DNA of 64,000 bases from Promethearchaeota archaeon. Its GTDB lineage: Archaea; Asgardarchaeota; Lokiarchaeia; Sigyniarchaeales; SOKP01. Under the pieces are notes generated by a model. The model was not told the origin of the DNA. It saw only the letters and a list, made by a program, of their open reading frames with translations, and did not search any database. Shown here piece by piece: positions 25,875 to 55,207 of the stretch (position 1 is the first letter of the stretch; each line of letters begins with the position of its first letter). The translations under genes and the position numbers were made by a program. The DNA lies in the NCBI GenBank assembly GCA_016840165.1, contig JAEOSU010000080.1, positions 96,001 to 160,000 of the forward strand, read 5' to 3'.

Positions 25875-28800
25875 TCAACTTTCTTTTAACTTAACTAAAG
25901 TTTCACAGATTATCGGATCTTGTGACATTTCACATCTTACTTTTAATAAAGAAATTACTCTATCCTTAATATTTTGCTCTTCATATTTTACCGTTCTTCC
26001 AAGTATTAAAGCAATTGACTGCTGAGTTTCTATTGCTGTCTCGTCAGTTAGTTGTTGTAACAATTTTGAAAGGATTTTAGTAATACCCTTATTTTTAATA
26101 ATATCGACCATAGCATTTACGGCTGATCTTCTCACTTCTTTAGATTCATCTGCAAGAAGCTTAATAAAATAATCAATCGTTTTACCAATATCTTCTTCTC
26201 CATATATTTTTAATAAATTAGCCGATCCCTCTCTTACTATCGGATCTTTATCATTCACATTATTCAATACTTTTTCAAAGGGAATCTGTGAAGGTTGTAA
26301 GTCCTTTATTGAAGATAGAAGGTTCATTGAAGAGCGCCGAACCCAATTATTTTTATCTTCGAGTAAAATAACCAATTCATTGATGATTTGTTCTTTATTT
26401 TTAATTAATTTAACTAGACTTCCAATGCTTGATATGCTAGCTTCTCTAACATTCCACTCTTCATCATTTAAAGCGTTATTTATTAAAAATTCGCATACTT
26501 GATTGGGAGATTTCACACCGATAAATCCTAGTATTTTCACTACCGTTTCCCTAATAAATGAATCATTATCAGAAAATAATTCCAAAAGGGGATCTAGTGG
26601 AATGATATCCGGGTTCTTCTCTGTGAGGATCATTATTATTTTTATAAGAGGAACCTTGAGATGCGACTCTTGCTTTTTTAAAATATCCAAAAGTTGATTA
26701 ATTATTGCAGTAAACGACAGGGGAGAATTTTTTGCTACTTTTGAGAGTAATTGTATTATATTTTTTTTTACTTCATTAACATGTTCACGTTGAAATATAT
26801 TCAGAAGTAAACCCACATCGATTTTCTGAATATGATCATCAATTATACCATCAAGAGAATTTATAGCATTTAATCTAGTGAAATCATTTTCAGAATCTAA
26901 TGATTTGATCAACCTTTCATAAATTTCATAGGGATGATGCCTAGCAATCTTAATGATGGTATTGGATATGATACCTTTTGAGAAAAATTTTGAATCATCT
27001 TCAATCGTGATTAAATTATTAAAAACCAATTCTGGAGATTTATCATAATTTTCAACTAAAATATTAGAAACTGTTTTTTTTATTTCCTCATTTTCAAATT
27101 TGATGAATTTTAGAAGTGTGGATAAGATTTTTTCACTATCCATCTCCCATAAATCACCAATCAATTGTAAAATACTCATAGTAATGGAGGGATTGTTTTT
27201 ATCTAATTTGTTTATGATGCTATCAAGATTAATCAATTTTGGACTCTCATTATAAAATTTGATGAGCACTAAAATTGCTGCGTCTCTTACTAATTTATCT
27301 GCATCACTTAATGCATCAAGAAATGGTGAAATTTGGATTGAATATTTCTTAAAATTTCCTATCTTAGAAAACAGAGTATAAATTGAAGCTCTGACTGAGC
27401 TAGATGGGTCTTTCATATAAGGAATTAAAGTTTGGACTAAATCTTTATCAATATATTCTGTTTTCAGTCCTGCTAAATTACTTATTGCTTTTGCTCTGAT
27501 TTCTTTATTTGGATGATTTATCTTCTTTATTAAAATTTTAACTGGGATCTCATATGGAGCTTTAGGTATACTATTTAGTATCTCAAGCTGGACCTTTTCA
27601 TCTGGATCCTCTAATAATTTAATAAATTCATTGGATTTTATTAATTCATCCTTGATTAATTTAAGTTTTATCAAAAGTTTAATCCCAATTAATTTAATCC
27701 TCCATTCAGAATCTCTAATCAAATTTAGAATTTTATTTTTTGAGATAGTTCTTAAAATATCATTATTCAAATTAAGTATAATTTTAGCTATTGACAGAGC
27801 TTTGGTATAATTTGAAGATTCTAGTTCTTCAAGTAGCCAAGGGAATATTAAATTAGGTGCATCTTGAGATAACCTATTTAAAATATTGAAACAAATCTTT
27901 CTCATAACATCGTTTTGGTCAGATAGACCATCAATAAGTAAGTCTTTAAATTTCCAATTATTAAGATCTATTTCAGAACGAAGCGTAATTCTTTCAAACA
28001 TCAAATTAATTGTCTTTTTAGCATGATTGTGTATCTTAGGATTTTTATTTTTGAGAAAATTAAAAAGGGGGATGGGATCAAAATTATGACCACACTGAGT
28101 TATCTTTGAAATTTTAAGATTGATTATGAATTCATTTCTTTGAGATAAAAAGTAATATGTTGTAAATAGTATCATTGTAATCTCCTCGATAATTGCCGCC
28201 CAAGAGAGTAGAAGATAATTAGGTATAATTTGATTCGTGATAGCCCAAAAGTTAAAAACTTCAGATAATTTATCTGAATTGACAATTAAGAAATTAATTA
28301 GGACATTAATCCCAATAGCAGCGATTAAATAAGCGGAAAAATATATATCTATAGCTTTATATTTAATTTTTCTCCCCCAAAATCTTGTGAAATATCCAAC
28401 GACTCCAAAGAATAAGGTGACAAATACAAATACTGAAGTCATAGTAGAAAAAGCCAGAGAGCCGGTAAAATATAATCCAATAGTTTGAAAAAAAGAAATC
28501 CAAGCCCATACAAATACAAACAACATGACTCCAAAAGTTATATAGGGAATCGGCTCAGACAGAAACTGTTTAATTCCTCTTTTACTATTTTCAAAATTAA
28601 GGAAAGAATAACGCTTTATTTCCGGAATATGATAATATGCATTAGAAAGGCCGGCGATATACCCTTTCGAACCAAAAAAAGTTAAAATCGTTATAGGATA
28701 TATTAACAGCCAAGAGATCCATATTATCGCAAAAGGAATATTTACTATAGCTATAAAAAAAGGTGGTATTATAAAAAATAAATAAAGAATAATTGCCATT

Positions 28801-29222
28801 GAAATTGACACTATTTTATTATTTGAGATATTAATAAAGTGTTTACTCAAGAACTTATGAAAAACTGTCAATCCTTCACTTGATTTTCCACTAATAGCAA
28901 TAAATAGGAAATCTATTAAGGGGTATATTGAAATATAAAGCACACATACTAAAAAAGGGAGGAGAAAAGCTAAAGGATGGATTTCTGGTGGTGAGATAGA
29001 GGGATTTGTCCAAAATTCAGGAGTTTTTACTGTGAAAATAAAAGCCATCACCACAACAACCATGACAGAGAAACTAAAAATTATTCCATAAAAAATTGTT
29101 AATATCCTATCTTTTAAACTAAATTCTCCTTTCTTAACCAAGCTAACTTGTTTATTAATTATAAAAAACCCGAAAATGCAGAATATTATAAACAAAACAA
29201 GAAAAATCGATTCAACAATCAA
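25875..29222 (-). CDS. Multi-pass membrane protein fused to a long HEAT-repeat solenoid
   Basis: About 9 TMs in the first 360 aa, then many L.D....VR..A HEAT motifs (DSEWRIK, DPSSSVRAS, DEEWNVREAS, DKNNWVRRSS). Confidence 0.8.
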   Translation of the reverse strand: MIVESIFLVLFIIFCIFGFFIINKQVSLVKKGEFSLKDRILTIFYGIIFSFSVMVVVVMAFIFTVKTPEFWTNPSISPPEIHPLAFLLPFLVCVLYISIYPLIDFLFIAISGKSSEGLTVFHKFLSKHFINISNNKIVSISMAIILYLFFIIPPFFIAIVNIPFAIIWISWLLIYPITILTFFGSKGYIAGLSNAYYHIPEIKRYSFLNFENSKRGIKQFLSEPIPYITFGVMLFVFVWAWISFFQTIGLYFTGSLAFSTMTSVFVFVTLFFGVVGYFTRFWGRKIKYKAIDIYFSAYLIAAIGINVLINFLIVNSDKLSEVFNFWAITNQIIPNYLLLSWAAIIEEITMILFTTYYFLSQRNEFIINLKISKITQCGHNFDPIPLFNFLKNKNPKIHNHAKKTINLMFERITLRSEIDLNNWKFKDLLIDGLSDQNDVMRKICFNILNRLSQDAPNLIFPWLLEELESSNYTKALSIAKIILNLNNDILRTISKNKILNLIRDSEWRIKLIGIKLLIKLKLIKDELIKSNEFIKLLEDPDEKVQLEILNSIPKAPYEIPVKILIKKINHPNKEIRAKAISNLAGLKTEYIDKDLVQTLIPYMKDPSSSVRASIYTLFSKIGNFKKYSIQISPFLDALSDADKLVRDAAILVLIKFYNESPKLINLDSIINKLDKNNPSITMSILQLIGDLWEMDSEKILSTLLKFIKFENEEIKKTVSNILVENYDKSPELVFNNLITIEDDSKFFSKGIISNTIIKIARHHPYEIYERLIKSLDSENDFTRLNAINSLDGIIDDHIQKIDVGLLLNIFQREHVNEVKKNIIQLLSKVAKNSPLSFTAIINQLLDILKKQESHLKVPLIKIIMILTEKNPDIIPLDPLLELFSDNDSFIRETVVKILGFIGVKSPNQVCEFLINNALNDEEWNVREASISSIGSLVKLIKNKEQIINELVILLEDKNNWVRRSSMNLLSSIKDLQPSQIPFEKVLNNVNDKDPIVREGSANLLKIYGEEDIGKTIDYFIKLLADESKEVRRSAVNAMVDIIKNKGITKILSKLLQQLTDETAIETQQSIALILGRTVKYEEQNIKDRVISLLKVRCEMSQDPIICETLVKLKES

Positions 29223-30606: not shown

Positions 30607-31131
30607 TTAACCTCGCAATAATAAGTATTCTTTTCTGATTTTAGCATATTCTTCCCCTGAGATTTTTCCAGCTAAAAAATCTTTTTCTTTTTGTTGCATC
30701 AATTTCCTTTTTGTATCTAGTTTCTTTTTCTTCTCTTCGCTACTAAATCTCTCTGAAATCTTTGTTAGTAAATTTTGTACTTTTTCATTTTTTAAAGTTG
30801 CAAGTTTTTTTAAGTATGGTTTGATTGGTTCCATTTGGTCGATATTCTTCTTCGAAAGTTCTTCTAATCTTATTAGGGCATCAAGAATTTCATCCTCTTT
30901 ATCACTTTCTAATACATCTATCAAACGAGGTATAGCAACATCGTTCAAAACTTCATTGAGATAATTTTCTACTTCCTTTTTAAGTATATTATCATTATAA
31001 GATTTTAGTTGATTATTCTTGACATATTCAATAAAGATTAAAGGTAATTCGACTGGCCACTCTTCCATTTTTTCTTTATCAATTAATTGTACAATTCCAC
31101 CATCTTTTTTTTGAAACACTCTTATATCCAA
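30607..31131 (-). CDS. Hypothetical helical protein (HEAT-like segment, SHOCT-like C-terminus)
   Basis: Overlaps the top6A stop; AIPRLIDVLES...; GKISGEEYAKIRKEYL. Confidence 0.6.
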   Translation of the reverse strand: MDIRVFQKKDGGIVQLIDKEKMEEWPVELPLIFIEYVKNNQLKSYNDNILKKEVENYLNEVLNDVAIPRLIDVLESDKEDEILDALIRLEELSKKNIDQMEPIKPYLKKLATLKNEKVQNLLTKISERFSSEEKKKKLDTKRKLMQQKEKDFLAGKISGEEYAKIRKEYLLLRG

Positions 31132-32309
31132 TCACCCGTACTTAATTTTTCTGGTAGATACTCTTCTGATAAAAATTCAAGCCCATGTGAAGATAATGCT
31201 TGGATCTCAGCCTTTTTCTTGAATTGTAATGCTAGTTTTAAATCTTCTTCCCATTTCTTATTTTTCTTTACAAAATCTTCCTTTAACAATTCTTTTGTTC
31301 TCTTAATGTCCATAGGTTTCATATCTAACCGTGCTTTTTTAGGAACGTTATATTTATCTAGATCTTTAGTTAACACCCCCAGAAGCTTTATATCTGGGGT
31401 TGCTAAAAACGGTGATTCATAGCTTAATCTTTTCGATCCCCGTAAATAAACACTATGAATATAGTGACCATAGGGATCACTGTCTACTAAACTAAAAACC
31501 GGTAATTGAAGTTCTTTATTTAATCTTTTTAAAAACATACGCGTAGCGATATCGGCAGCACCTTTTGCAGTCATTATTATGGAGGGATACTTCTTCCAAA
31601 ACTTATCCTCTGAAATACGCCTCATTGCGGCTTCTTTTTCAATTACAAGGATAAATTCAGCATCAGATTCAATAATATCTACTTTATCTAACATTGGAGT
31701 TATTGCCCAAGCTCCAGACCCAAATTTTTCTAAGTCGATGATATTATTTTCATCCCTAATTCTCAAGCGACCAACACACAAACCTTTAGCTGAAGCAATG
31801 ATGTGAGTGGAATTTCTAGTAGTATAGAGCATAGAAGAAATATCTTCAATACTTTTATCACTATTTTTCTGTTCTCCATATATCTCGACATCTTGATAAA
31901 AAACATCCCTTAATGTACTATGTTTATCTTTAACAAGCAACTCGTGAACTACTTCAGCAACTCTCATCAATCGGGTTATATCCGCTACACTAGCAAGAGA
32001 ATGAAATTGTTTTTTAATAATTTGTTTGCCTAATAACAATAAATCATTTTCCTCGTCCCATATTATATTACTTGCGGTTCTAGAAGGTAATTCCAGCGAT
32101 GGCCTTCCAGTTGCATATATCATCTCGATTAGGTTATCCACGACCTCGTATAAGCGATTAAGCGTTTCATTTCTACTCAGTTCATCTACTTCAATAGTAT
32201 CTAGTGGAAGTTTTACTTCCTTAGTATCTTTTCTTTTTGCTTGATAATCTTCGAAAAGCTTTCGAGCTGCTTTTAAATCATATTCTGTTATAGCTTTTTT
32301 TTTTGCCAA
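31122..32309 (-). CDS. top6A: DNA topoisomerase VI subunit A
   Basis: STLRDVFYQ (catalytic Tyr), IEKEA, DSDPYG TOPRIM motif, KAEIQAL. Confidence 0.95.
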   Translation of the reverse strand: MAKKKAITEYDLKAARKLFEDYQAKRKDTKEVKLPLDTIEVDELSRNETLNRLYEVVDNLIEMIYATGRPSLELPSRTASNIIWDEENDLLLLGKQIIKKQFHSLASVADITRLMRVAEVVHELLVKDKHSTLRDVFYQDVEIYGEQKNSDKSIEDISSMLYTTRNSTHIIASAKGLCVGRLRIRDENNIIDLEKFGSGAWAITPMLDKVDIIESDAEFILVIEKEAAMRRISEDKFWKKYPSIIMTAKGAADIATRMFLKRLNKELQLPVFSLVDSDPYGHYIHSVYLRGSKRLSYESPFLATPDIKLLGVLTKDLDKYNVPKKARLDMKPMDIKRTKELLKEDFVKKNKKWEEDLKLALQFKKKAEIQALSSHGLEFLSEEYLPEKLSTGDWI

Positions 32310-32321
32310 TTCAATTACCTA

Positions 32322-35300
32322 CTATTTTAATTTCCAATGTTTTTTCCCTTTTTTAATTTCAACAATTATGATTCCTTTTCTTTCTAATTCTTTTAATTTA
32401 AGCTGTAGGAATCGAGCATCCATCATATCTTTTATTTTCATCTTAAAAATTAATGAAGTGATTGGTTGCCATTCATTAGATAAGAATTTCAATATTTTAT
32501 CAGTCGATATTATTGGTAATTGTGTTTGAGTCGTTTTCTTTTCAGTAACTTTTGGTTCTTTTTTGATGGGAACTTTAACGATATTCTTTTGCTCAATAAG
32601 AGGAGTTTCTTGGTAGGGTTCTTTTACTTTTTCTTTTAATTCCTCAGCAGTAGCCTTATCATGTAAAAGAGATTCTTGAATAATAGTAATCATTTCATTC
32701 TTTTTTAGGTTAGATGAAAGTTCGATATTCTTTTCCTCACAATATTCCATGAGTTCTCCTTTAGTCATATTTTTTAGGGTTTTTGGGGATAAAACTTCCA
32801 TTTTTGAAATAGGTGCCTCCTTAGATTTCACAATTGTCTCAGTTTCTTTTAATTTATTGATGTATTGTTCAGACTCAATTTTTGGAGTTTCTGTAGGAGT
32901 TATTTTAGCACCGATGGCATTTATCATTAAAGTTTCTAATTCAGAAACAGATATTTTATCCGTATATTTACTATTCCCCTGAGTAGCAATATTATAAATG
33001 CTTTCTACGAAGGTTGGAATATATTTCTCAATATAGCTTGCTCTTTTCTCTTTTTTGCTTAAGTTCGCTTTTCTGTTAAGATAAACACGTAATCTTCTGC
33101 CTATAGCCTCAAGACAATATTTTATTTCTTTTATTAATTCTGGATCATCTGCTAAAGCATTTTTTGACTGGGATTTGAACATAAGATGGACATAAGGACC
33201 TGAAACATTAATTAATAACAATATAGGTCCTTTAGGTAAATTATTATCATATACATCAAGTTTGTAATTCTTCCAATTGACAGTTTGAACTGCTTTAGTA
33301 ATAGCGCAATCAGCGTTATCTCTCAATTTTGGAGTTCGGTTGACATATCTAAATAAAACATCACTAGATCGTTTAGGAGTTTCAAGTTTTTTTGGATCAT
33401 TACAATAAGCTAATACCGCTTCTACGACATAAGCAAGTCCTTTTCCACTTGTAGGAGGTCTAGTCTCAGCAGATACAAAATCGTCATCCCGAGAATAATT
33501 ATCGGTAAAATATTCAAAAATCTGTTCATAGGATTTTAAGGATGGATTTACTGATAATTCTAATATATTTTGTATTGAATGCTTGAGTTTTTCCTTATCA
33601 ACACTTACTTCATTTAAATTGATCCCATTCATGATCTGCAGATTAAACTCGAGAAGATCTTGCTTTGTTAATTGTTTATCGTCTTTTAATTGAACCTGTT
33701 TAGCTAACTGTATTAGTTCTTCAATGGGCTCCTCAAAATCTTCAGTTGCTTCTGAAATTTTTAAACCTATTTCCTTAATTAATGTATTTTCTAAGACGGT
33801 GTCCCCCACAGGAATGGCTGTATCAGTGGGGGGTGCCATGTACTTTATAGACTTAAAAGCGTGGAATAATGAATTGAATTGTTTATTTGTAACTTCTGAT
33901 GGTTTCGATTTAGAGATTTGAACCTCTTCCACCAGATCTTCTAATTCTGATCGATTGATCACTTTTTTTAATTCAACTAAATTGTCCTTATTCGACTCAA
34001 TCAGTTTGTTTAAATCGTTTTTAATCTTTTGCTTTTCTTTATTGATGGCTTTGATATCGACTAGTAATTTATCAATATTTTGTTCTATCTTCTTTTGATC
34101 TTTTTTAGTCTCAGCTTTTTCAATACGATCGCTGTATTTTTTTATTTGTTTTTGGATTTTTTCTAAATCTTTATTAAATTGATTATAATCTGATATCTTT
34201 TCCCAGTATTTCTCTACTAAATCATGTGATTCAATTTTATAAATGATAAGTTTTTCTCGTGGTTTTTTAGATTTCCCAAAAACACGCTTTTCGAAAGTTA
34301 AGAATAGAATATCTTCATTCTTTTTTTCATTTTTTTGGATAAATCCCGACTTAAGAATGAGTAGGTCTAATTCATCCTCTAAACTTCTTTGGGCAGACTT
34401 TATAATTTTTTTTGCTGTATTAGAACTTACTCGGACGAAATTATCTTGTAAAAACGCAGAAACGGTTAGATTTTCGGATTTGGCGATTAAATCCTGCAAA
34501 TCCCCGATATTTGTTGAGGAAGGATGAGGTTTTGCATATTTTGGTTCCCTTGGAAATGAGGAGACTAAACGCTCGAACTTTAATTCCTCACCATAAGGAT
34601 CGATATAGATTATCGTTATATGAGGATTCATAAGTGCGGTTTGTCGAATGTAAATATCCGCTGAACCTCTTTTATATTTTGTATTTAAATAATTAAGTTT
34701 TATGTACGTGCCATGTAAAAAGGGACTGTCAACCTCAGTGGGATGTACTAGATATCTTTTTTCATTTTTAGATGTCGTGAAAAATTCTGAAACGGTGGCA
34801 TAGATGTTGTCACTCGATTTTGATACAGCAATAATTGGCTTACCAGTTGTGTTTTGTGAATCACTAAAAGCACTTGGAGCTCCGAATCCTTGACTACCTC
34901 TAGTCTGCTTTAATTCGAAACTTTTTGATGAAGCTAAGTATTTTCCGAATTTACGTAAATCATTTTTACCCATACCTATTCCATTATCAAAAATCTCGAA
35001 GGAATAACTCATAACATTTTTTTGAGATAACTCAGAAGTTAAAAAACTTGGTGCCTCTGACTCTCTGAGACGTATTATGACTAAAGGTTCTGTATCTATG
35101 ATGGATTCTACTGGCTTAATGATTTCATTCATATCTTCAATGATACGTAAAACTTCCTCTTCTACTTCTAATTCTGATTTGTCAACTATTTCTCCAGATT
35201 CTGTTTCTTTATCTTCGTTAAGTATTTTAGTTTCTTCTGAGATTTCTGCTGGACGGATACCCATCTCCTGCATGAGAACACTTTTAGCTTCATTATTTAA

Positions 35301-35573
35301 TGGTTTTTTTTCATCTTCATCCATTCCATCTTGAAGAATTGACAAATTTCGTAAAGTGAGTTCTTGATCTAATGAAAAGGCAATTTTTGAAGAATCTTTT
35401 TGTAATTCATTCCATTGAAAAGACTCAATTGCATCAAGAGCATTATCCATAAATTCTGCAGCGTATTGGGTATGTTTCCAATAACCAAATTCAAATCCTA
35501 CGAGCTGTGTGCGTTTCCTCATGAACTGAGCAATAGTTCCTTGCTCAATTCTTCCATCATCTTCAGAAGTAAT
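32322..35573 (-). CDS. top6B: DNA topoisomerase VI subunit B, greatly expanded (about 1083 aa; ORF track start 35522, inferred ATT start 35573)
   Basis: EFMDNALDA, DNGIG, QTRGSQGFG, HGT GHKL motifs; PKYAKPHP; RYVNRTP transducer. Open frame continues upstream as ITSEDDGRIEQGTIAQF, matching the usual Top6B N-terminus. Confidence 0.9.
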   Translation of the reverse strand: MTSEDDGRIEQGTIAQFMRKRTQLVGFEFGYWKHTQYAAEFMDNALDAIESFQWNELQKDSSKIAFSLDQELTLRNLSILQDGMDEDEKKPLNNEAKSVLMQEMGIRPAEISEETKILNEDKETESGEIVDKSELEVEEEVLRIIEDMNEIIKPVESIIDTEPLVIIRLRESEAPSFLTSELSQKNVMSYSFEIFDNGIGMGKNDLRKFGKYLASSKSFELKQTRGSQGFGAPSAFSDSQNTTGKPIIAVSKSSDNIYATVSEFFTTSKNEKRYLVHPTEVDSPFLHGTYIKLNYLNTKYKRGSADIYIRQTALMNPHITIIYIDPYGEELKFERLVSSFPREPKYAKPHPSSTNIGDLQDLIAKSENLTVSAFLQDNFVRVSSNTAKKIIKSAQRSLEDELDLLILKSGFIQKNEKKNEDILFLTFEKRVFGKSKKPREKLIIYKIESHDLVEKYWEKISDYNQFNKDLEKIQKQIKKYSDRIEKAETKKDQKKIEQNIDKLLVDIKAINKEKQKIKNDLNKLIESNKDNLVELKKVINRSELEDLVEEVQISKSKPSEVTNKQFNSLFHAFKSIKYMAPPTDTAIPVGDTVLENTLIKEIGLKISEATEDFEEPIEELIQLAKQVQLKDDKQLTKQDLLEFNLQIMNGINLNEVSVDKEKLKHSIQNILELSVNPSLKSYEQIFEYFTDNYSRDDDFVSAETRPPTSGKGLAYVVEAVLAYCNDPKKLETPKRSSDVLFRYVNRTPKLRDNADCAITKAVQTVNWKNYKLDVYDNNLPKGPILLLINVSGPYVHLMFKSQSKNALADDPELIKEIKYCLEAIGRRLRVYLNRKANLSKKEKRASYIEKYIPTFVESIYNIATQGNSKYTDKISVSELETLMINAIGAKITPTETPKIESEQYINKLKETETIVKSKEAPISKMEVLSPKTLKNMTKGELMEYCEEKNIELSSNLKKNEMITIIQESLLHDKATAEELKEKVKEPYQETPLIEQKNIVKVPIKKEPKVTEKKTTQTQLPIISTDKILKFLSNEWQPITSLIFKMKIKDMMDARFLQLKLKELERKGIIIVEIKKGKKHWKLK

Positions 35574-35793
35574 TTTAACAACCTACATTATAATATTAAT
35601 CTCAATAAGAAAACCTTAGATCATTATTTTTAATTGTATATCTATTGGTATTAAAACTATGACCTTATGGTAATTTTTCATAATCTTTTTATTTATTTTT
35701 CAAAATCTATCTATTTATTCATTTTGAACTAAAATTGATTTCTTATTTAAATTTTATCCTAGCAGAAAAATTTATCAAAAAGAGTGTAATGAA

Positions 35794-39588: not shown

Positions 39589-39595
39589 TTTTACT

Positions 39596-42088: not shown

Positions 42089-42106
42089 CGAATTTAATAG
42101 ACCTCC

Positions 42107-46869: not shown

Positions 46870-47616
46870 ATGATGATGAAGCTCTTAGTAATCATTCCTG
46901 CATTTAATGAAGAGAAGACTATTGAGAATGTAGTAAAAAGTATTCCTAATATTCCTAATATAGATCAAGATGTGCTCGTTATCGATGATGGAAGCAGTGA
47001 TAATACTTTAATATATGCTAAAAAACAAGGAGCTGAGACTCGCTCAAATAGAAGAAATATGGGACTTGGTTCGGCTTTTAAATTAGGTTTAAATTATGTT
47101 TTACAAGAAAAAGTCGATTATATAGCAATTTTGGATGCTGATGGACAATATGAGCCATATGGATTAAAAAGACTCATCAATCCAATTATTAATGAAAATT
47201 ATGATTTGGTTATCGGTAATCGTTTCATTAATGGAGGATATTTTGAAGCAAGAACTATAAAACGTCTGGGAAATCTCTTTATTTCTACACTTATATCGAA
47301 AGTATTATTAAGATTAGAGATAGTCTATGATATTCAATCTTCTTTTAGGGCATTCAATAAAAAGTTAGCTATATTTATTTTAAACAATATTAACGCGAAA
47401 TATAATTATGCTCAAGAAATGTTTATTTTAGCTAGCCTATATAGATTCAGGATTAAGCAGATCCCGGTTATATGTAAAAAGAGACATTCAGGAAAATCCA
47501 GACTTATTAAAAACCCAGCTCTCCATATAGTTCGAATATTATGGGTTTGTCTTAAAACATTTATAAAAAATTTTTTTATAAGGAATTACTCTTTTCCCTC
47601 ATCAAGTCCTAATTGA
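46870..47616 (+). CDS. GT2 glycosyltransferase (DPM1-like)
   Basis: IIPAFNEE, IDDGSSDNT, LDADGQY, VIGNRF. Confidence 0.9.
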   Translation: MMMKLLVIIPAFNEEKTIENVVKSIPNIPNIDQDVLVIDDGSSDNTLIYAKKQGAETRSNRRNMGLGSAFKLGLNYVLQEKVDYIAILDADGQYEPYGLKRLINPIINENYDLVIGNRFINGGYFEARTIKRLGNLFISTLISKVLLRLEIVYDIQSSFRAFNKKLAIFILNNINAKYNYAQEMFILASLYRFRIKQIPVICKKRHSGKSRLIKNPALHIVRILWVCLKTFIKNFFIRNYSFPSSSPN

Positions 47617-48344
47617 GAGATCATCATTCTTTTTAAATCCTGTCTATTTTTTGGCAGCCCAAACATATCTGCATATTTGTCTGTAGTCATTAATTCATGG
47701 CTTCTTCCTTTTTTTTCTGCAGATATTAATTCATTATCAAGGAGATACTTAACATGTTCGTATGCACCAGTACCTCTAATTTTTATGACAGTTGACTTTA
47801 AAATTGGTTGCTTTAAGGCAATTATAGTAAGGGTTCTTAAATACTTTTCCGCTATCGCCCCACCTTTAGTAAATTTGGAAATAGTTTCTGTATATTCCGG
47901 TCTTAGCTGCATTTGGTAGCGCTCTCCAACTTGCGCTATGACAAGCGCACTCGAGCGATCTAAATATTCATATGCAAGTTCGGTGATTAATTCTTCCACC
48001 AACTTTTTTGAGATTTCTAGTTTAGTGGCAATTTCTTCTATATCCAATGGACTTCCAGCAGCATAAAGAGCTCCTTCAATTAAATTTTTTTGGATAATCC
48101 GAAATTCTTTATCTTCATCTAAAGTTTCTTTTTCTATTTTTTCTTCTCCAATATCCATTTCATCGCTGTCCTCACTCTCAATATCTTCGATTTGCTCACT
48201 ATCTTGATCAATAGTATCATTTATTTCAGTATCAGATTCATTATTTTCATGGGATCCTTGTTCTGGATCAGATATGGATTCAACTTCTTTTTGATTTTCA
48301 TCTTTTAAATATTCCTCAATTTGATTTTCTTCCTCATTATCCAT
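47586..48344 (-). CDS. scpB: SMC-Scp complex subunit ScpB with acidic N-terminal extension
   Basis: IEGALYAAGSPL, LRTLTIIALKQPILKS..IRG, TTDKYADMFGL. Confidence 0.92.
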   Translation of the reverse strand: MDNEEENQIEEYLKDENQKEVESISDPEQGSHENNESDTEINDTIDQDSEQIEDIESEDSDEMDIGEEKIEKETLDEDKEFRIIQKNLIEGALYAAGSPLDIEEIATKLEISKKLVEELITELAYEYLDRSSALVIAQVGERYQMQLRPEYTETISKFTKGGAIAEKYLRTLTIIALKQPILKSTVIKIRGTGAYEHVKYLLDNELISAEKKGRSHELMTTDKYADMFGLPKNRQDLKRMMISQLGLDEGKE

Positions 48345-48359
48345 GGTTTAATCTCCCAA

Positions 48360-49355
48360 TTATCTTATATTAATTATAAAATCCCTAAAATCCTCTTCCT
48401 GGTTTAAGGTTAACTTATTTCCCGTTGAGAGAAACATTAATGCTAAAAACATCCTTACAAATGCAAATCTTCTTCCAATATCAGATGGTTCTTCATTTTT
48501 AATTATTTGAGCTAAATCAAAAAAAGTAGTCTCTACACCTTCTAAGTTTATTTTTGCTTTTATTCGATTAAACCAGGACTCATGTAATTCCTCTATTGAT
48601 TGTTCTCTTCCACTGATATGCTTTAATAATTCTTTTGGTAACTGAGCTTTTGATCTCATCTGGATTTTTTGTTCTTTTAATTGTTCTCTTCGTAATCGTC
48701 TCCGCCTTAATTTCTCTTTATTTTGCATTGTTTCTATTATAGCAGAGCGCATAGCTTCGAATAACTCCTCTTTTGTTGCAATAAGCATTTTTGGCTGCAA
48801 TGGTTGAGATAATGTTTTCGGGATGGTTCTAGCATGCGATTGCCTGAACTTTTCGAGCTCCTCTTTTTTCTGTATTTCCTCCTCTTGTTTAATGATGCTC
48901 GAGATTTTATAGTGATGTAATGATGCAGAGGTTTTGAGAGCAATTCCTGAAATTTTGTAATTTATTAGACTTTCATGGAGCATGTTATCGAAAAATTTGT
49001 CTACCAGTGAAGCTAAGTCGTAAAATGCTACATTTGAATCTTTTGCGAGCTCCGTATCCAACAAACTCGAATAAGGAGGTTTTTGCCAGAATTTCAATTC
49101 CATTTTTTCCTTATACAATAAAGCAGGGTCATCATCTTCCTCTACTCCCGCAATTAATTCTTCTTCTAACTCAACTTCTTGCGTTCGATCAATAAAATCC
49201 GGGTGAGAAACAATCTCCTCCAGTAATTTAATTATATCTTTCTTTTTTGATTTAGAAGGAATTGTAATATTATTTTTTCCAGCAAAATCTCTTAATTGTG
49301 CAACAGTCCATTCAGTAAATTTGTTTTCTTCTTTAGCTTCACTTTCTTTTGAAAT
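48360..49355 (-). CDS. scpA: Kleisin ScpA with N-terminal HeH/SAP-like domain (ORF track start 49118; inferred ATT start 49355, 331 aa)
   Basis: YDLASLVDKF...ISGIALKTSASLHHYK N-kleisin; FLALMFL...LNQEEDF C-terminal winged helix; lies between smc and scpB; frame open upstream to a GGTGA-preceded ATT. Confidence 0.85.
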   Translation of the reverse strand: MSKESEAKEENKFTEWTVAQLRDFAGKNNITIPSKSKKKDIIKLLEEIVSHPDFIDRTQEVELEEELIAGVEEDDDPALLYKEKMELKFWQKPPYSSLLDTELAKDSNVAFYDLASLVDKFFDNMLHESLINYKISGIALKTSASLHHYKISSIIKQEEEIQKKEELEKFRQSHARTIPKTLSQPLQPKMLIATKEELFEAMRSAIIETMQNKEKLRRRRLRREQLKEQKIQMRSKAQLPKELLKHISGREQSIEELHESWFNRIKAKINLEGVETTFFDLAQIIKNEEPSDIGRRFAFVRMFLALMFLSTGNKLTLNQEEDFRDFIINIR

Positions 49356-49362
49356 TTCTATT

Positions 49363-49367
49363 TCACC
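49363..49367 (-). promoter_or_regulatory. Shine-Dalgarno-like GGTGA for scpA
   Basis: GGTGA lies 7 nt before the in-frame ATT at 49355; the same motif precedes mcm (TTG) and cofD. Confidence 0.6.
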
Positions 49368-49387
49368 TAATTAAAATGAATACTTAA

Positions 49388-52300
49388 TTAACTTTCCTCG
49401 ATGTTTGTGGGTACATCCGGTAATTCTAATAATTTTTTAGCCTCCTCCTCTAAATCGACGCTAAATATATCCGTTATACCACTTTGCTGCATTGTGACCC
49501 CATATATTCTATCTGCATTTACAATATTCTCTTCTCGATGACTAATAACCATGAATTGAGCTTGTTGAGCAAATTCTTTAATCACCATGCTTACTCTATG
49601 AACATTTGGACCGTCAAGGGCAGCATCTATTTCATCCATTATATAAAAGGGTGCGGGATAGAACTCCTGCACAGCAAAGATGAATGAGAGAGCTACGAGC
49701 GTTTTCTCTCCTCCACTAAGAATTTCCAAGCTTGAGATCTTCTTTCCTCTTGGTCGTGCTTCTATACTTACACCTCCTTCGAAAGGTTTATCCGGACGAT
49801 CTAAAATCATTTTAGCAGAGCCACCTGGGGATAATTTTTGAAAAATTCGCGAAAATTCTCGATTAATTTCATGATATGCTTTCATAAAAGTACGAGTTTT
49901 CTCAAGTTCAATCTTTTCTATAGCATCTAAGATAGCTTTACGTTCACGTTGGATTGTTTGTCTTCGCATATCGATCTCATCAAAGCGTTCTTTAACGGCA
50001 TCAAATTGTTCTATTGCTTTGAGATTTACAGGTTCCAAAGCATTTTTCTTTTTAGATGCTTCAGATATATCCGATTGGAGTCCAGATTCGGATAAATCAT
50101 CTGTAACAGGAGGAATAACACCATAATCTTTAGAACGATGATAAAGGGTTTCAATTTGATCTTTAGTAATTATAATTCTTGATTCATAATTATTTATTTT
50201 CGAATTTTCCATAGAATAATCTGTTTTTAAATCAGTGATTATTTTCTGATAGTTCTTTTGCTTATTCCAAGATTCATCTTTTTGTTGAATAAATTGATTT
50301 AATTCTTCTTGTTTGAGATTTTTGTTTTGTTTTTCTTGTGATAAATTCTCTTCGAATTTTTTTATTTCTATGGAGATTTTTTCAATTTCTTTCTCAGTAT
50401 CATCAATATCTTGATGTAATGCTAAAATTTTGTTTTCTCTTTCTTTATTTTTATTGATTTCATTTAAATTTCCTTGATTTTTCTGTAAATCATTATTAAG
50501 CTTATTTAGATTCTTTTGAGCGGCTTTCTGGAGCTCTATTTCTTTGCTTTTTTCTTGTCTTAATCCATCAATGATGTTTTGTATTTCATCAACTTTTGAT
50601 TGCAGGCTTTCAATCTGTTTTTTATTTTCCTCAACATTTTTCTTGCTAGCTTCAATATTTATCTTTGCATCTGAATTTTCTTTTGATAAATCCTCAATAG
50701 ACGTAATAATCATCATTATATTATCTAAAGATCTCAATTTGTTCATAGTTTCTTCTAAAATCTTATTTTGTTCGTCGATCTGAACCCTTATACTTTCAGT
50801 GTTTTCCCAAAATTTCTCCTTTTTACCAATTAATTCATTTATATTCGAATTGATGGATTCTTGTTCCCTGTTAACTGAGTCAATTTTATTTTTTATTTCA
50901 TTTATTGTCTCTTTCTTTGAGTCAATGTATTTTTTTAAATCTTCAATATTCGTCTCTATTTCAATAATACTATCAAAAAGAGATTGAATTCCCTGTAATT
51001 CTTGGAGATTTATCTGTAATTGTTCCAACTCTTTTTGTTTCGAATCGATTTTACCTTGAATTATTTCAATATTTTCCCAGTACTTAGATTTTAGATCTTT
51101 TAATTTTTTGATATCATCTTCATAATTTTCTTTTTCTTTTTCATTAATTTGATTACTCCTTTGACTTATTTCCTCTTCAGATTTACTTATAGTCTCACTC
51201 GCCTCAGAGATTTTTCTATTAACTTCATCTAATCGTTTAGTATACAGAGCAAAGTCTTCGGAATCCCGTTTTTTGTTAATATTAACCTCAGTTAATTTAT
51301 TCTCTATGGTATTTAAATCATCTGTTTGAGATGCAATGTTTAGAGAAATCGCCTCGAGTTGTTTATATAGGTCCTGACTCTTAGACATAGTTAGTTTTCT
51401 AAGAGAAATATAGACATTTTCAAGGATTTCCATAAGATCTTGAACAAAACTATCGAAGTTAGTCGTCGATTCTTGAATTTCAACATCAGCAGATTCTTTT
51501 ACTTTAGAAATTAACTGATCAATGGTAGAATCAACATTATCAGTAAATAGAGAAAGGGTTTGGAGTATTGAATTAATAGATTTCGAGGTTTCGCTTTCTT
51601 CATCAGTCTCACCACTAACGTCCTCAATGGTTTTCATAATATCTACGATATCTAATACAAATTTACGGAAATCATCAGCTGAAGTTTCAATAGCCTCAGC
51701 ATTTGATTGTTGTATATTACTCTTTATTGATTCTACACTAATATTGATATTTTGCGTTAACATATTTAGGATTTGAAGTATACCGGTTATATCTTCTGTA
51801 TTTCTCTCATATTCTTTTTCTGTTTTTTCAATTTTTAAAGAAAGTTCTTCTTTTTCTTTTATTAAATCATTTAAGCGTCTTTGAATATTTTCCTTTTTAG
51901 AAACGAGATTATTTTCGTCATTTTCTACTTTAGCGAGATTACTCTTTAGATTATTAACTTTTAACTCTGAATCACTCTTTTCTCGTTCAAGGTTTGTGAA
52001 GTCTCGGTTTACTAATTTTAATTTTGTATTTAGGTTTTCTATTTTTGCTTTGTGGTCATATATTTCTGATTCTATAGAATCTTGCTTCATTATCAATAAT
52101 TCTAAATCTTGTTCATATTTTCTGAATGTTGAATTTTCTTGTTGATATTCTTTCTTTAACTTATTTAATTCATTATTAATTGCTGATTTTTTATTCAGCA
52201 TTTCCTTTAAAACGATTTCTGTATCTTTACCCTCACTTAATTCTTTAATTCTGTTCTCAATTAATGTCTTTTTTTCCTCCATTTCCGCTATTCTCGTGTT

Positions 52301-53851
52301 ATTAATATTAATTTCCGTAGTTAAAGAGGATAAGGAGGATTGAAAGGCTAATTGATTTGAATTTAATTCACTTTGCTTATCCTGTAATTCTTTAATTTGA
52401 TTCTCTAGATTTTTCTGGTTTTGATTTTCTTTTGATATAGCTGATTTCAATTCATTTATTTTCTTTCTTATTGCGAGCTCCTCTTTTTTTGTAGCATCTA
52501 TTGCATCCTCTATACTTTCTGCCTCTCCTTTTAATTTTTTAAGATCCTCCTCTAATTTTATTTTCTTCTCTTCATTCTTCTTGATGTTCTCTTTAAGTAC
52601 TTTGATTTGAGCATTATCAGATGAAATATTTTGCTTCACATTTGAAATATCTGATTTAAACTTAGATTGTTCTTCATTTTTAAGCTTGATTTGATTATCT
52701 AAATCAGCTTGATTTTGCTGTCTTGTTTCTATTTCTTCTTTTGATTCTTCGATTAGTTTTTCAGTTTCAGAAATTTTGTTAGTAAATTCGCTTATAATTG
52801 AATCATAGGTTTGTCCCTCCTCAAGTTTCATCTGTTTATTCTCTAATGATACAATTTCTTTAGAATATTTATCAATAGTTTTCTTTGCAATTTCTAAACT
52901 GGTCTGATGAGAAGAGAGTTGAGTTTTTAATTGAGTAATATTTTCGTTAATAGTTTCTTTTTCCTTTTCCTTCTCAGTAATTGTTTTTTGGATGTTATCC
53001 ATGAGGAATGATTCCTGTTTTAATATTTCTTCTTGTCTAGTTATCCTCTCTTCCAGTTCCTCAATAATTTTGGTTGATTGCTCAACATTTTGCTGTAAAT
53101 TTTCTTCCTCCTCTTTTAATTTCGAAATCTTTAGAGCGATTAATTGAGCATTATAATATTTTATTTTTTCATCTAATTCCTTCCAAGCTAATGCATCATT
53201 CTTTTCTTTTTCAACTTTCTTCAACTGAGAGGATACCTCTTTAAAGATAGCTTCGAATTGACCCAAATCTCTCTCAGCTTTTTCTAGTTCTTTCATTGTT
53301 GCATCTTTCATTTCATCGTATTTCTGAAGGCCTATGAGTTCTTCAATAAAATCCCTTCGATTCTCCGGATTCATATGAGTCAATTCAACAATTTTCCCTT
53401 GTAAAACAAACTGATTTGTTCCATCAGGATCTATATTCGCAGTAGCTAGAGCATTTAGAATTTGCTGACGAGTTGCTCTTTTGCCATTTATTTTATATCC
53501 GCCCCCACCACCACGTTTAATTGAACGAGATACTTCAAATGTGTCACCTGGAGTAGGGAAAATATTCTCAGAATTATCGAAATATAGGCTAACCTTCGCT
53601 CTCTGAGAAGGATTCTTTCCTCTAGACCCCGCAAATATTAAATCTTCCAGACTCTTAGCTCTCATCGTCTTTTTGCTTAACCTTCCTAATGCAAATGTTA
53701 ATGCATCAATAATATTGGATTTTCCTGCTCCGTTTGGTCCCACAATGCAAGTAAAGCCACTTGAAAGCTTAATTGTTACAGTCCGGTCGCCAAAACTTTT
53801 AAACCCAGTCATTGATATTTTTTTTATGTGAGTCATCACATTATTCCTCAA
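49388..53851 (-). CDS. smc: Chromosome segregation ATPase SMC, elongated, with non-canonical hinge region
   Basis: GFKSF, GPNGAGKS, VLQG, LEPVNLKAIEQF, LSGGE, DEIDAALD, ISH. Real start probably 53836 or 53839. Confidence 0.95.
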   Translation of the reverse strand: MRNNVMTHIKKISMTGFKSFGDRTVTIKLSSGFTCIVGPNGAGKSNIIDALTFALGRLSKKTMRAKSLEDLIFAGSRGKNPSQRAKVSLYFDNSENIFPTPGDTFEVSRSIKRGGGGGYKINGKRATRQQILNALATANIDPDGTNQFVLQGKIVELTHMNPENRRDFIEELIGLQKYDEMKDATMKELEKAERDLGQFEAIFKEVSSQLKKVEKEKNDALAWKELDEKIKYYNAQLIALKISKLKEEEENLQQNVEQSTKIIEELEERITRQEEILKQESFLMDNIQKTITEKEKEKETINENITQLKTQLSSHQTSLEIAKKTIDKYSKEIVSLENKQMKLEEGQTYDSIISEFTNKISETEKLIEESKEEIETRQQNQADLDNQIKLKNEEQSKFKSDISNVKQNISSDNAQIKVLKENIKKNEEKKIKLEEDLKKLKGEAESIEDAIDATKKEELAIRKKINELKSAISKENQNQKNLENQIKELQDKQSELNSNQLAFQSSLSSLTTEININNTRIAEMEEKKTLIENRIKELSEGKDTEIVLKEMLNKKSAINNELNKLKKEYQQENSTFRKYEQDLELLIMKQDSIESEIYDHKAKIENLNTKLKLVNRDFTNLEREKSDSELKVNNLKSNLAKVENDENNLVSKKENIQRRLNDLIKEKEELSLKIEKTEKEYERNTEDITGILQILNMLTQNINISVESIKSNIQQSNAEAIETSADDFRKFVLDIVDIMKTIEDVSGETDEESETSKSINSILQTLSLFTDNVDSTIDQLISKVKESADVEIQESTTNFDSFVQDLMEILENVYISLRKLTMSKSQDLYKQLEAISLNIASQTDDLNTIENKLTEVNINKKRDSEDFALYTKRLDEVNRKISEASETISKSEEEISQRSNQINEKEKENYEDDIKKLKDLKSKYWENIEIIQGKIDSKQKELEQLQINLQELQGIQSLFDSIIEIETNIEDLKKYIDSKKETINEIKNKIDSVNREQESINSNINELIGKKEKFWENTESIRVQIDEQNKILEETMNKLRSLDNIMMIITSIEDLSKENSDAKINIEASKKNVEENKKQIESLQSKVDEIQNIIDGLRQEKSKEIELQKAAQKNLNKLNNDLQKNQGNLNEINKNKERENKILALHQDIDDTEKEIEKISIEIKKFEENLSQEKQNKNLKQEELNQFIQQKDESWNKQKNYQKIITDLKTDYSMENSKINNYESRIIITKDQIETLYHRSKDYGVIPPVTDDLSESGLQSDISEASKKKNALEPVNLKAIEQFDAVKERFDEIDMRRQTIQRERKAILDAIEKIELEKTRTFMKAYHEINREFSRIFQKLSPGGSAKMILDRPDKPFEGGVSIEARPRGKKISSLEILSGGEKTLVALSFIFAVQEFYPAPFYIMDEIDAALDGPNVHRVSMVIKEFAQQAQFMVISHREENIVNADRIYGVTMQQSGITDIFSVDLEEEAKKLLELPDVPTNIEES

Positions 53852-54016
53852 ATTGATTCAGATTTCTATACTTACAAGAAGATTTGAATAAAAATCATTC
53901 CAAAATCGTTGTTTATTTCTTGATTCTTTATAACTTAAAGAATTATTACAACTATATATATAATCATTATTTAAATAGTTAAGATTTTTGGAATATTTGA
54001 CTTATAAAATTAGTTA

Positions 54017-55207
54017 TTATTTGCCAAATATGGAATCTACAATCGCCTTAAGCTGTTTAGGATTAATAAATAAATAAAAAGATGTATCATCTGAAATCTT
54101 GCTAAAGATAGAACCCCTTTCAAATTTAAAACTCTTTTTAGAGATATTGATTAATCCCACACTCCTTAAATTTCGCAAAATGTCATTATATTGAGTTTTA
54201 CTGGCAATATATTCTATTGATTCACATGAGATGATATATAACTCTTTTAGCTTTTTATTAGATATGTAGTAATTAGAATTTCTTAAGAAAAAGTTTGCTA
54301 GATTATCCAGAAATATAATAATAAGGAGTTCTTCTTCAGAAATATAGGAAAGCAACGAAAATTCGTCTGAAATTTGGATGGAGTCAAATTGATTTTGAAT
54401 GAGTGAGATAAAATCTAAATGACTGATATATTTTGGATCTTTAAGAAGAGGATATAATTCTTTAAATATTTCAATTCCTTTTCCAGGCACGGGTACATAA
54501 TGTTCAAAAATTAAGTCTGTGATGTATTCAATCAATTCAATATCTATTTCGTGCATAAAAGTTAATGAAACTCTTTGTTTTAGAATATCTAATAATTCAG
54601 AATAAGAATAGAATTCTAATTTTTTTTTGTAATCAAACTCATTTAAAAGATCAAAAGTCTCACTTCGATTTACTCTATTTACTGTAGAAATTATTGTTGT
54701 TTTCGTCTCTTTTCCATAATTCAAAAATTTTTTGAAGTTTTGAGGTTTTAAATCTTCAATATTATTAAAAACCATAATCAACGGATTAGTAATTTTACTG
54801 GTTATCAGTTTAAATGTATTCCATAACTCAGATACACTAGCCTTTAAAAATGAAGTTAAATTTAGCTCAAAATTGCACATAAACGAGAGATCTGAGATTA
54901 AACCGAAAAAAATTTCATGCAGATTTTTGTCTTTACAATCTACACTAACTTCATAGATTATTGAATCCAATTGATTTTGATAGATTAGGTCTTTAGTAAC
55001 TTTATTTATTATAACTTTTTTACCTATTCCTTGCAGTCCTTGATATAGGACATTGCAACAGAAATTATCCGATAATGAATCGTTTAGAAGAGATTTAAGA
55101 TAATTCTCTTCTTTAGCTCGATATAATATTTTTGGAGGGACATAATTAACATCAAATAATGCTTTAGGACCAATATAATCATTAAATGTTTCAGATTTTA
55201 CTATCAT
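54017..55207 (-). CDS. Cdc6/Orc1-like AAA+ protein with degenerate Walker motifs
   Basis: LFDVNYVPPKILYRAKEE N-terminus, GLQGIGKK, VDC, YSYSELLDILKQRV, C-terminal winged helix (LY...C...LRSVGLI). Confidence 0.75.
   Translation of the reverse strand: MIVKSETFNDYIGPKALFDVNYVPPKILYRAKEENYLKSLLNDSLSDNFCCNVLYQGLQGIGKKVIINKVTKDLIYQNQLDSIIYEVSVDCKDKNLHEIFFGLISDLSFMCNFELNLTSFLKASVSELWNTFKLITSKITNPLIMVFNNIEDLKPQNFKKFLNYGKETKTTIISTVNRVNRSETFDLLNEFDYKKKLEFYSYSELLDILKQRVSLTFMHEIDIELIEYITDLIFEHYVPVPGKGIEIFKELYPLLKDPKYISHLDFISLIQNQFDSIQISDEFSLLSYISEEELLIIIFLDNLANFFLRNSNYYISNKKLKELYIISCESIEYIASKTQYNDILRNLRSVGLINISKKSFKFERGSIFSKISDDTSFYLFINPKQLKAIVDSIFGK

Follow-up and report, generated by a model that had tools for sequence, protein, structure and literature searches.

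Can a condensin-type SMC (structural maintenance of chromosomes) complex do without a hinge? The hinge counts among the features that define SMC proteins: it is the dimerisation interface and a DNA-binding site, and it is a proposed DNA gate in cohesin. The question is raised by a locus in a 64,000-nucleotide stretch of DNA (the window), which comprises positions 96001-160000 of contig JAEOSU010000080.1 from a metagenome bin (3.6 Mb, 99.7% complete; NCBI GenBank assembly GCA_016840165.1) of a Lokiarchaeial Promethearchaeota archaeon. This organism is a member of the Asgard archaea, the prokaryotic group closest to eukaryotes. Four genes at window positions 47586-55207, cdc6-like, smc, scpA and scpB, encode a degenerate Orc1/Cdc6 paralog, a long SMC, a kleisin and a kite protein; all four are co-oriented, as the initial annotation stated, and lie on the minus strand. 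The SMC has no detectable hinge, and the hinge-less Smc-ScpAB is an order-wide paralogous complex, not a one-genome oddity.

The distribution of these genes was surveyed in 251 genomes sampled evenly across the phylum. The order in question is a Lokiarchaeial order that includes the window's family (f1, 54 genomes) and a sister family (f2, 5 genomes); 26 other families were surveyed. Labels of the form gN, fN and GNNN denote genera, families and genomes, respectively.

The SMC, kleisin and kite subunits

The locus has the following features:
47586..48344, minus strand: kite ScpB, 252 amino acids (aa), with an acidic tail at residues 1-85 (48090-48344; net charge -30)
48360..49355, minus strand: kleisin ScpA, 331 aa, between smc and scpB, read from ATT at 49355-49353
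49212..49319, minus strand: HeH/SAP/Rho_N-type module at the ScpA N-terminus, followed by an acidic linker (net charge -10)
49363..49368, minus strand: Shine-Dalgarno sequence AGGTGA, 7 nucleotides before the ATT start of scpA
49388..53851, minus strand: hinge-less, long-armed SMC; 1,487 aa from TTG at 53851, 1,482 aa from the likely start, ATG at 53836
51347..51796, minus strand: apex module (SMC residues ~686-835), a duplicated helical hairpin forming an acidic, nearly invariant four-helix bundle
54017..55207, minus strand: degenerate paralog of Orc1/Cdc6, 396 aa; a conserved pseudo-ATPase, and one of four Orc paralogs in the genome

The Walker A, signature, Walker B, D-loop and H-loop motifs of an SMC head are all present in the translation. 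The protein matches SMC_N (Pfam) with E 2.3e-46. It scores 603.2 bits against TIGR02168 (above the cut-off of 567.35), 619.5 bits against TIGR02169 (under the cut-off of 729.4) and only 105-111 bits against Rad50 models. Orthologues start at the methionine corresponding to position 53836, so the SMC is probably 1,482 aa long. At least 120 clusters of homologues were found, with lengths of 1,473-1,487 aa. The hinge domain, PF06470, has no match in the window SMC at E 0.1 and is absent from its homologues (120 matches listed). The initial annotation described a long SMC with a replaced hinge, and that description is correct.

What occupies the position of the hinge? The apex module consists of two similar helical hairpins linked by a variable acidic loop, and its two halves align without gaps over 58 aa (Smith-Waterman z 9.9; 0 of 500 shuffles as good). 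Residues 691-720 have a mean identity of 98% to the window SMC across 108 homologues, which equals the conservation of the P-loop region. An AlphaFold2 model based on a 52-sequence alignment is all-helical, with four helices (pLDDT 82.8), and conservation is highest in the two long helices on either side of the tip. The net charge of the module is -18. A Foldseek search of the model against the PDB gave no match at E <= 0.001. A wide search with VIA-align returned generic four-helix bundles (vinculin, catenin and talin rods, sensor domains, designed bundles) at Z 12-14, the usual background of helical bundles; no hinge, hook or MukB hinge is among the VIA-align matches listed, which does not exclude them. 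A Pfam search with the apex by itself gave sub-threshold helical families only. A homodimer prediction with two copies, made without controls, scored 0.00 and is evidence neither for nor against dimerisation.

The SMC arms are ~1.4-1.5 times the usual length, by way of tandem duplications of 90-98 aa. Smith-Waterman alignment with shuffles detects tandem repeats of ~90 aa in the C-terminal arm (z 9.6) and of ~98 aa in the N-terminal arm (z 7.2 and 4.8); blastp of the SMC against itself gives no off-diagonal matches.

The zinc hook of Rad50/SbcC and the small hinge of MukB are alternative apex solutions in the SMC superfamily. The window SMC has no Cys-x-x-Cys motif and no cysteine in residues 672-852; unlike Rad50/SbcC, it has SMC-type heads, and its partners are a kleisin and a kite protein, not Mre11. 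A Rad50 identity was rejected for these reasons.

A module resembling the apex also occurs near the N-terminus (residues ~69-235) of a second protein family in f2, whose members are ~1,000-1,180 aa long (L012, G213:C1:3822438-3822908; P0264, P0266 and P0268). This second family has no Pfam match and was not found in the window's genome.

The start of the kleisin gene is unusual. The first usual start codon is TTG at 49118, and the frame is open upstream to a stop at 49371-49373. The HeH (helix-extended-loop-helix) module lies upstream of the first ATG, GTG or TTG, and only translation from the ATT at 49355-49353 would include it. This ATT and the AGGTGA are invariant in four sequences, the window and three related metagenome contigs, while the non-coding DNA upstream of the start differs among the four, with indels. 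The methionine of orthologue P0128 aligns exactly with the ATT. From these comparisons the ATT is most likely the start codon, and because of this, ScpA is taken to span 48360-49355, a protein of 331 aa. An assembly or annotation artefact was rejected as the cause of the missing start codon because the ATT and the Shine-Dalgarno sequence are kept in independent contigs.

Is the protein a kleisin, and is the module real? ScpA scores 16.6-16.8 bits against PF02616, under the cut-off of 24.6. PF02616 sees Asgard kleisins poorly in general, and misses the window genome's own ScpA. In four other Asgard families, tblastn matches ScpA to the gene that smc and scpB flank (E 2e-5 to 4e-11). Orthologues are named Rec8/ScpA/Scc1 kleisin family by JGI, and conservation extends to both the N-domain and the C-terminal winged helix typical of kleisins. 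There are at least 340 homologues, most of them 330-345 aa long and covering 99% of the extended protein. The HeH-bearing kleisin of the initial annotation was likewise upheld: the same HeH is found in 15/15 aligned orthologues, most of which have a canonical start codon, and W20, V22, L25, F28, N32, I34, K42 and I45 are invariant in 16 aligned ScpA sequences. Against Rho_N, the window ScpA scores 19.1 bits (cut-off 24.9, E 1.3e-3). Orthologue P0217 carries two copies of the HeH and exceeds the cut-offs for HeH (38.9 bits), SAP (36.4 bits), Ish1 and Rho_N. The module resembles the ~35-aa helix-extended-loop-helix modules of the SAP/HeH/LEM/Rho_N group (PF02037, PF12949, PF07498), for which both P0217 and the window's Topo VI-B exceed cut-offs. 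In contrast to known tethers of this group, it is fused here to an archaeal kleisin and to Topo VI-B.

Every long-SMC operon sampled in the order has a ScpA with an extra N-terminal piece, or head-piece, and the head-pieces are of four unrelated kinds. The HeH is found in f1 genera g1, g2, g3, g5, g6, g7, g8 and g65. A C2HC zinc finger (C-P-Y-C-G ... H-K-C) is found in g4 and one f2 genus, two helix-hairpin-helix motifs (G-I-G-K) in g67, and a long Lys/Ser/Thr-rich tail in f2, f29 and f30. In most of the sampled loci, an acidic stretch lies between the head-piece and the conserved K-F-W-Q kleisin core. This four-way swap of unrelated DNA-binding modules on a kleisin across the order is new. 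It amounts to a natural domain-replacement experiment, and it points to a selected DNA contact at the SMC neck. Indeed, the strongest argument for DNA contact as the selected function is that generic DNA binders repeatedly replace each other at one position. Judged from the domain families, this argues for the head-piece being a generic predicted DNA contact rather than a dock for a specific partner.

The kite protein is readily recognised. ScpB scores 121.5 bits against PF04079 (cut-off 27.4) and 99.6 bits against TIGR00281 (cut-off 89.2), and it is the single ScpB of the window's genome. Its tail was correctly annotated as acidic, with 36 Asp/Glu in residues 1-85. An acidic ScpB tail of 75-168 aa, with a net charge of -20 to -50, is present in every long-SMC operon examined (the window and six loci, from f1 and f2).

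How does the complex compare with canonical Smc-ScpAB, as found in B. subtilis and Pyrococcus (TIGR02168/TIGR02169, PF02616, PF04079)? The three-gene order is the same, and the two have in common the head motifs, the kleisin N-domain and C-terminal winged helix, and the tandem winged helices of ScpB. All three subunits differ from the canonical form: the SMC has the acidic four-helix bundle instead of the PF06470 hinge, and longer arms; the kleisin has the head-piece and the acidic linker; and the ScpB of the order has its long tail.

Distribution, paralogy and precedents

The apex module is present in 47/54 f1 genomes and 5/5 f2 genomes, always inside open reading frames (ORFs) of ~1,480-1,500 aa. 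The 26 other families yielded four matches only, two of them weak. One match, in G205, is probably mis-binned (three fragments, 75-79% identity, in a 72%-complete bin). Another, in G193, is on a contig of 8.6 kb; in the tree described below, the SMC heads encoded there differ little from those of an f2 genome. A search of 1.84 billion representative proteins with the apex profile gave 37 matches only.

Outside the order, the operon has its familiar form. Five other Asgard families have a hinge-bearing SMC of ~1,190-1,215 aa followed by scpB, with scpA detected in four of them; in those four, ScpA is 225-257 aa long, without a head-piece, and ScpB has 5-9 residues before its core. Thus, the initial annotation's proposal of a co-evolved variant complex agrees with the survey: hinge replacement, head-piece and ScpB tail occur together throughout the order, and the combination was not found in the other families sampled.

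The order also has hinge-bearing SMCs. A hinge-bearing SMC of ~1,200 aa coexists with the long SMC in g4, g6 and g8 of f1 and in part of f2 (genus g9, G264). A short ScpB adjoins this paralog, with open frames of 199-229 aa (196 aa from the ATG in G213). Its kleisin was sought with PF02616, which gave only weak candidates elsewhere; the neighbouring gene in G213 is a divergent 273-aa ORF without kleisin similarity by hhalign. The sole PF06470 match in the window's genome is a divergent 1,152-aa SMC on contig C54, which groups with SMC5/6-like sequences. More generally, the window's genome and genera g1, g2, g3 and g5 have only a weak SMC5/6-type hinge match. The hinge-less complex is therefore the only condensin-type SMC found in g1, g2, g3 and g5, and the canonical hinge-bearing copy has been lost in the window's genus.

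A maximum likelihood tree of the head domains (34 sequences, 384 columns, LG+C20 PMSF) was rooted on the SMC5/6-like sequences. Two clades are each supported at 100/100, one made up of the long SMCs and the other of the order's hinge-bearing SMCs. Both clades are inside the Asgard condensin-type radiation, and each repeats the f1/f2 split, so both SMC copies were present in the ancestor of the order. The long smc is near-universal and single-copy in the order. A whole archaeal order runs a complete Smc-kleisin-kite complex without a hinge, and in many genera it is the only condensin-type SMC.

Are there precedents? TACK and Asgard archaea have been described as having two SMC complexes, with condensin/cohesin-like and SMC5/6-like operons (bioRxiv 10.1101/2024.01.07.573240; PMC8665677). 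The window's genome is like this two-complex model in having a condensin-type operon and a divergent SMC5/6-like, hinge-bearing SMC. The order's ancestor, in contrast, appears to have had two condensin-type sets, one hinge-less and one hinge-bearing, in addition to the SMC5/6-like protein. A word search of the same two papers gave no mention of hinge loss or kleisin head-pieces. A clade of hinge-less, Actinobacteria-like SMCs has been reported from ocean metagenomes; these have heads and coiled coil with no hinge and no Rad50 CxxC hook, and the variants did not co-occur with regular SMC genes (PMC12153180). The Lokiarchaeial proteins differ from them in belonging to another domain of life and an unrelated lineage, and in their kleisin-kite context, head-piece swaps and visible paralogy. 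A literature search, with subscription journals largely outside it, found no paper on a hinge-less Lokiarchaeial SMC, a kleisin with an HeH or other head-piece, or a Topo VI-B with an HeH.

The hinge-less complex offers a natural way to test the purpose of the hinge, the possible positions of a DNA anchor on the SMC motor, and the effect of longer arms on that motor. G213, G259 and G264 are single-contig genomes within the order, so strains with closed genomes may be at hand.

Companion genes and competing explanations

The window carries MCM, Topo VI, the Orc paralog and SMC within 32 kb. Three further features bear on the explanations:
25875..29222, minus strand: HEAT-repeat protein, 1,115 aa, exceeding the cut-offs for Cnd1, Adaptin_N and stromalin SCD
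31122..32309, minus strand: Topo VI-A (Spo11-type), adjoining Topo VI-B; PF21180, E 7.8e-59
32322..35522, minus strand: long Topo VI-B, 1,066 aa from the first ATG, with an HeH at 32676-32777 and an order-specific terminal winged helix

The cdc6-like protein matches TIGR02928 with E 3.5e-12 and 45.9 bits, far under the cut-off of 181.3, which three bona fide Orc1/Cdc6 genes elsewhere in the genome exceed. A profile of 36 orthologues aligns residues 20-355 with residues 15-347 of S. solfataricus Orc1-1 (2qby_A; E 8.9e-10), and the top 50 Foldseek matches of a moderate-quality model (pLDDT 69) are all Orc1/Cdc6, ORC or Cdc6 chains. The architecture of AAA+ domain, lid and winged helix is like that of archaeal Orc1/Cdc6 and of inactive eukaryotic ORC subunits. 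The catalytic residues are not: in 117 aligned orthologues, Walker A reads G-x-Q-G-I-G-K-[K/Q], with S/T last in Orc1/Cdc6, and Walker B reads F-N-N-I-E, with D-E in place of N-N in Orc1/Cdc6. The degenerate state seen by the initial annotation is therefore old and conserved, since the motifs are shared by all 117. Pseudo-ATPases of the Orc family thereby have a second case, independent of eukaryotic ORC.

Orthologues of the cdc6-like protein occur throughout the order, with 41-73% identity in f1 and 23-32% in f2. Its position next to smc, another difference from archaeal Orc1/Cdc6, is less general. The synteny expected by the initial annotation holds in g1, g2, g3, g5, g6 and g8, where the gene is directly upstream of smc (at least 35 genomes), and fails in g4, where it is 33-41 kb away, and in f2, where it is far away or on another contig. 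The adjacency has been kept over considerable divergence but is limited to the sub-clade with the HeH-type kleisin. The protein might have a role as a loader or site-marker.

Topo VI-B is remodelled as well. Its transducer domain is clear (PF09239, E 1.6e-28), and residues 916-949 score 30.8 bits against Rho_N (cut-off 24.9), in line with the HeH-like module annotated there. The protein is about twice the usual length, with an acidic insert in the GHKL domain and a coiled-coil insert of ~120 aa, and there is a second, weak Rho_N-like match inside it. Conserved-looking coding sequence without a canonical start codon precedes the first top6B ATG (region 32322-35600), and a non-canonical start is possible. 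The C-terminal extension with its terminal winged helix is found in 54/54 f1 and 5/5 f2 genomes, with one weak match elsewhere (f13, E 4.6e-5); in four other families, Top6B is 577-682 aa long. The HeH, which lies in the linker, is patchier. It was found in 15/20 additional f1 genomes sampled: it is present in 8/12 genomes in g1, 5/5 in g2, as tandem copies in g5, and in g8. The HeH is present in G210 (g6) as well, and it is missing from a g1 sub-clade, G144 (g6), g3, g4 and f2, which have Lys/Pro-rich or Lys/Ser-rich linkers instead. The co-occurrence across Asgard genomes that the initial annotation named as a check holds for hinge replacement with a kleisin head-piece, and does not hold for the HeH of Topo VI-B.

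The ScpA and Topo VI-B HeH modules are of the same subtype (W-T-[VI]-x-x-L-[KR]-x-[FY]-[AC] ... K-K-x-[DE]-I-I). There are HeH-like modules at ~6 loci in the window's genome; the other carriers are a gelsolin-repeat protein, an IFT52-GIFT-like protein, a 318-aa protein and a 184-aa protein on a 5-kb contig. Because the HeH is patchy on Topo VI-B and present on unrelated proteins, it would seem to be a portable putative DNA tether of the family rather than a dedicated SMC-Topo VI device.

The HEAT-repeat protein scores 62.6 bits against Cnd1 (cut-off 26.4) and 35.3 bits against SCD (cut-off 27.5), and such HEAT models cross-match widely. Its N-terminal half, which has no Pfam match, is found in 53/54 f1 genomes, 5/5 f2 genomes and 0/191 genomes of other Asgard families. 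In most f1 genomes, ~3-7 kb separate the gene from top6B (9-21 kb in g4); in 5/6 f2 genomes, the distance to the long smc operon is 5-23 kb. Where smc and the HEAT gene share a contig, they are 5-35 kb apart in most of the genomes sampled from both families. The protein is a candidate HAWK-like partner (HAWK, HEAT protein associated with kleisin).

How are these observations best explained? The explanation that we favour, and consider reasonably probable, is that the locus encodes an order-specific paralog of archaeal Smc-ScpAB in which all three subunits have been remodelled and the DNA contact has shifted to the kleisin. The complex would remain an ATP-driven machine that entraps DNA or forms loops. 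The DNA contact made by the basic hinge in other SMCs would be relocated to the kleisin N-terminus, which, being at the SMC neck next to the DNA clamp of the heads, might provide an anchor. Masking or tuning of the head-piece may be the role of the acidic linker and the ScpB tail, perhaps by competing with DNA, and the apex bundle would serve dimerisation or partner docking, not DNA binding. The initial annotation had the HeH replacing hinge-DNA contacts. This would be right in spirit, given that the head-piece slot always holds a predicted generic DNA binder and that the apex is acidic.

Several points weigh against this explanation. DNA binding by the head-piece, dimerisation by the apex and regulation by the tail are functions inferred from domain resemblance and composition. 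The window's own HeH is under the Pfam cut-off (22.3 vs 28.9 bits, E 1.1e-4), and the ATT initiation that it needs has conservation as its only evidence. The absence of head-pieces and tails outside the order is known from 4-5 loci. The long and hinge-bearing SMC clades form a polytomy in the head tree (83/74), which fits either sister paralogs or acquisition of one copy. Finally, the traits mark nested clades and are shared by descent, so that their co-occurrence reflects few evolutionary events and is no independent evidence of coupling.

This last point leads to an alternative that we regard as rather unlikely, namely that hinge loss, head-piece, ScpB tail, Topo VI-B extension and cdc6-like neighbour are uncoupled lineage embellishments that arose on the same or nested branches. 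Each trait does map to one clade or nested clade, and the unrelated-looking HEAT protein has the same distribution, which suggests that clade-specific genes are common there. However, three of the traits are on three subunits of one physical complex, and the ScpB that accompanies the hinge-bearing paralog in these genomes is short and lacks a long tail. Moreover, each replacement of the head-piece, of which there were at least three, brought in another DNA binder, and this points to selection for DNA binding in the complex. A different coupling was proposed by the initial annotation: the HeH modules of ScpA and Topo VI-B would bring SMC and topoisomerase to one chromatin or membrane partner, comparable to LEM/SAP tethering and to condensin with topo II. 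The shared subtype is in its favour, with ~70% identity between the two modules in G210, as are the small number of such loci in a 3.6-Mb genome, the presence of a ScpA HeH in every sampled genome with a Topo VI-B HeH, and the location of top6 and smc 13-38 kb apart on the same contig in f1. The lineages that lack the Topo VI-B HeH nevertheless keep a ScpA head-piece, the top6-smc linkage is lost in f2, the same HeH is on the gelsolin-repeat and IFT52-GIFT-like proteins, and the unrelated DNA binders at the kleisin position in sister lineages fit DNA as the ligand better. We consider a common HeH partner distinctly unlikely, and the survey does not support the claim in its original form; a coupled SMC-Topo VI system is only partly supported.

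Could the long SMC instead be a specialised paralog, concerned with repair or the control of extrachromosomal DNA rather than with chromosome organisation? Rad50 and Wadjet are precedents, and genomes of g4, g6, g8 and part of f2 do have a hinge-bearing SMC-ScpB pair alongside the long SMC. Yet it occupies the ancestral smc-scpA-scpB operon arrangement, is near-universal and single-copy rather than patchy, and is the only condensin-type SMC in the window's genus, g2, g3 and g5. No nuclease or defence genes adjoin it; the surroundings of the locus are metabolic and housekeeping genes, for which reason a defence-island context was rejected. We therefore see a specialised role as very unlikely. 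The most far-reaching possibility, and a long shot in our estimation, is that a eukaryote-like holo-complex has the hinge-less SMC at its core, together with a kleisin head-piece anchor, a HAWK-like HEAT subunit and a dead Orc protein that marks loading sites. By analogy, the head-piece would then be the DNA anchor for loop extrusion, and the role of the Orc paralog might be likened to that of ParB-parS, which marks SMC loading sites in bacteria.

Other features of the window and genome

The window and its genome have some additional features. The gene that adjoins the HEAT protein gene encodes a complete MCM helicase (23570-25696, minus strand), with matches to each of the N, OB, P-loop and lid domains. 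A co-oriented block (37219-43048, minus strand), flanked by top6 and a Dam-type methyltransferase gene, encodes a MoxR-type AAA ATPase (42107-43048) and two larger proteins: one of 830 aa that ends in a VWA domain, and one of 789 aa for which Pfam gives no match. A 373-aa ORF (57130-58251, plus strand) has no Pfam match at E 0.001.

Two of the other HeH carriers deserve mention. The gelsolin-repeat protein of the window's genome (305 aa, C104:52322-53236, minus strand) combines a gelsolin repeat, at 21.2 bits just above the cut-off, with an HeH/SAP module at its C-terminus, which shares the subtype found on ScpA and Top6B. It would be an actin-regulator-like domain tethered to DNA. The 184-aa protein, with an N-terminal HeH, is encoded on contig C46 (C46:1-5151), which has three genes. 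The others encode an 828-aa AAA_16 ATPase with a weak phi29 terminal-protein match, and a 242-aa protein with three topoisomerase-type zinc ribbons and a winged helix 39% identical to the C-terminus of Top6B. This contig may be a mobile element.

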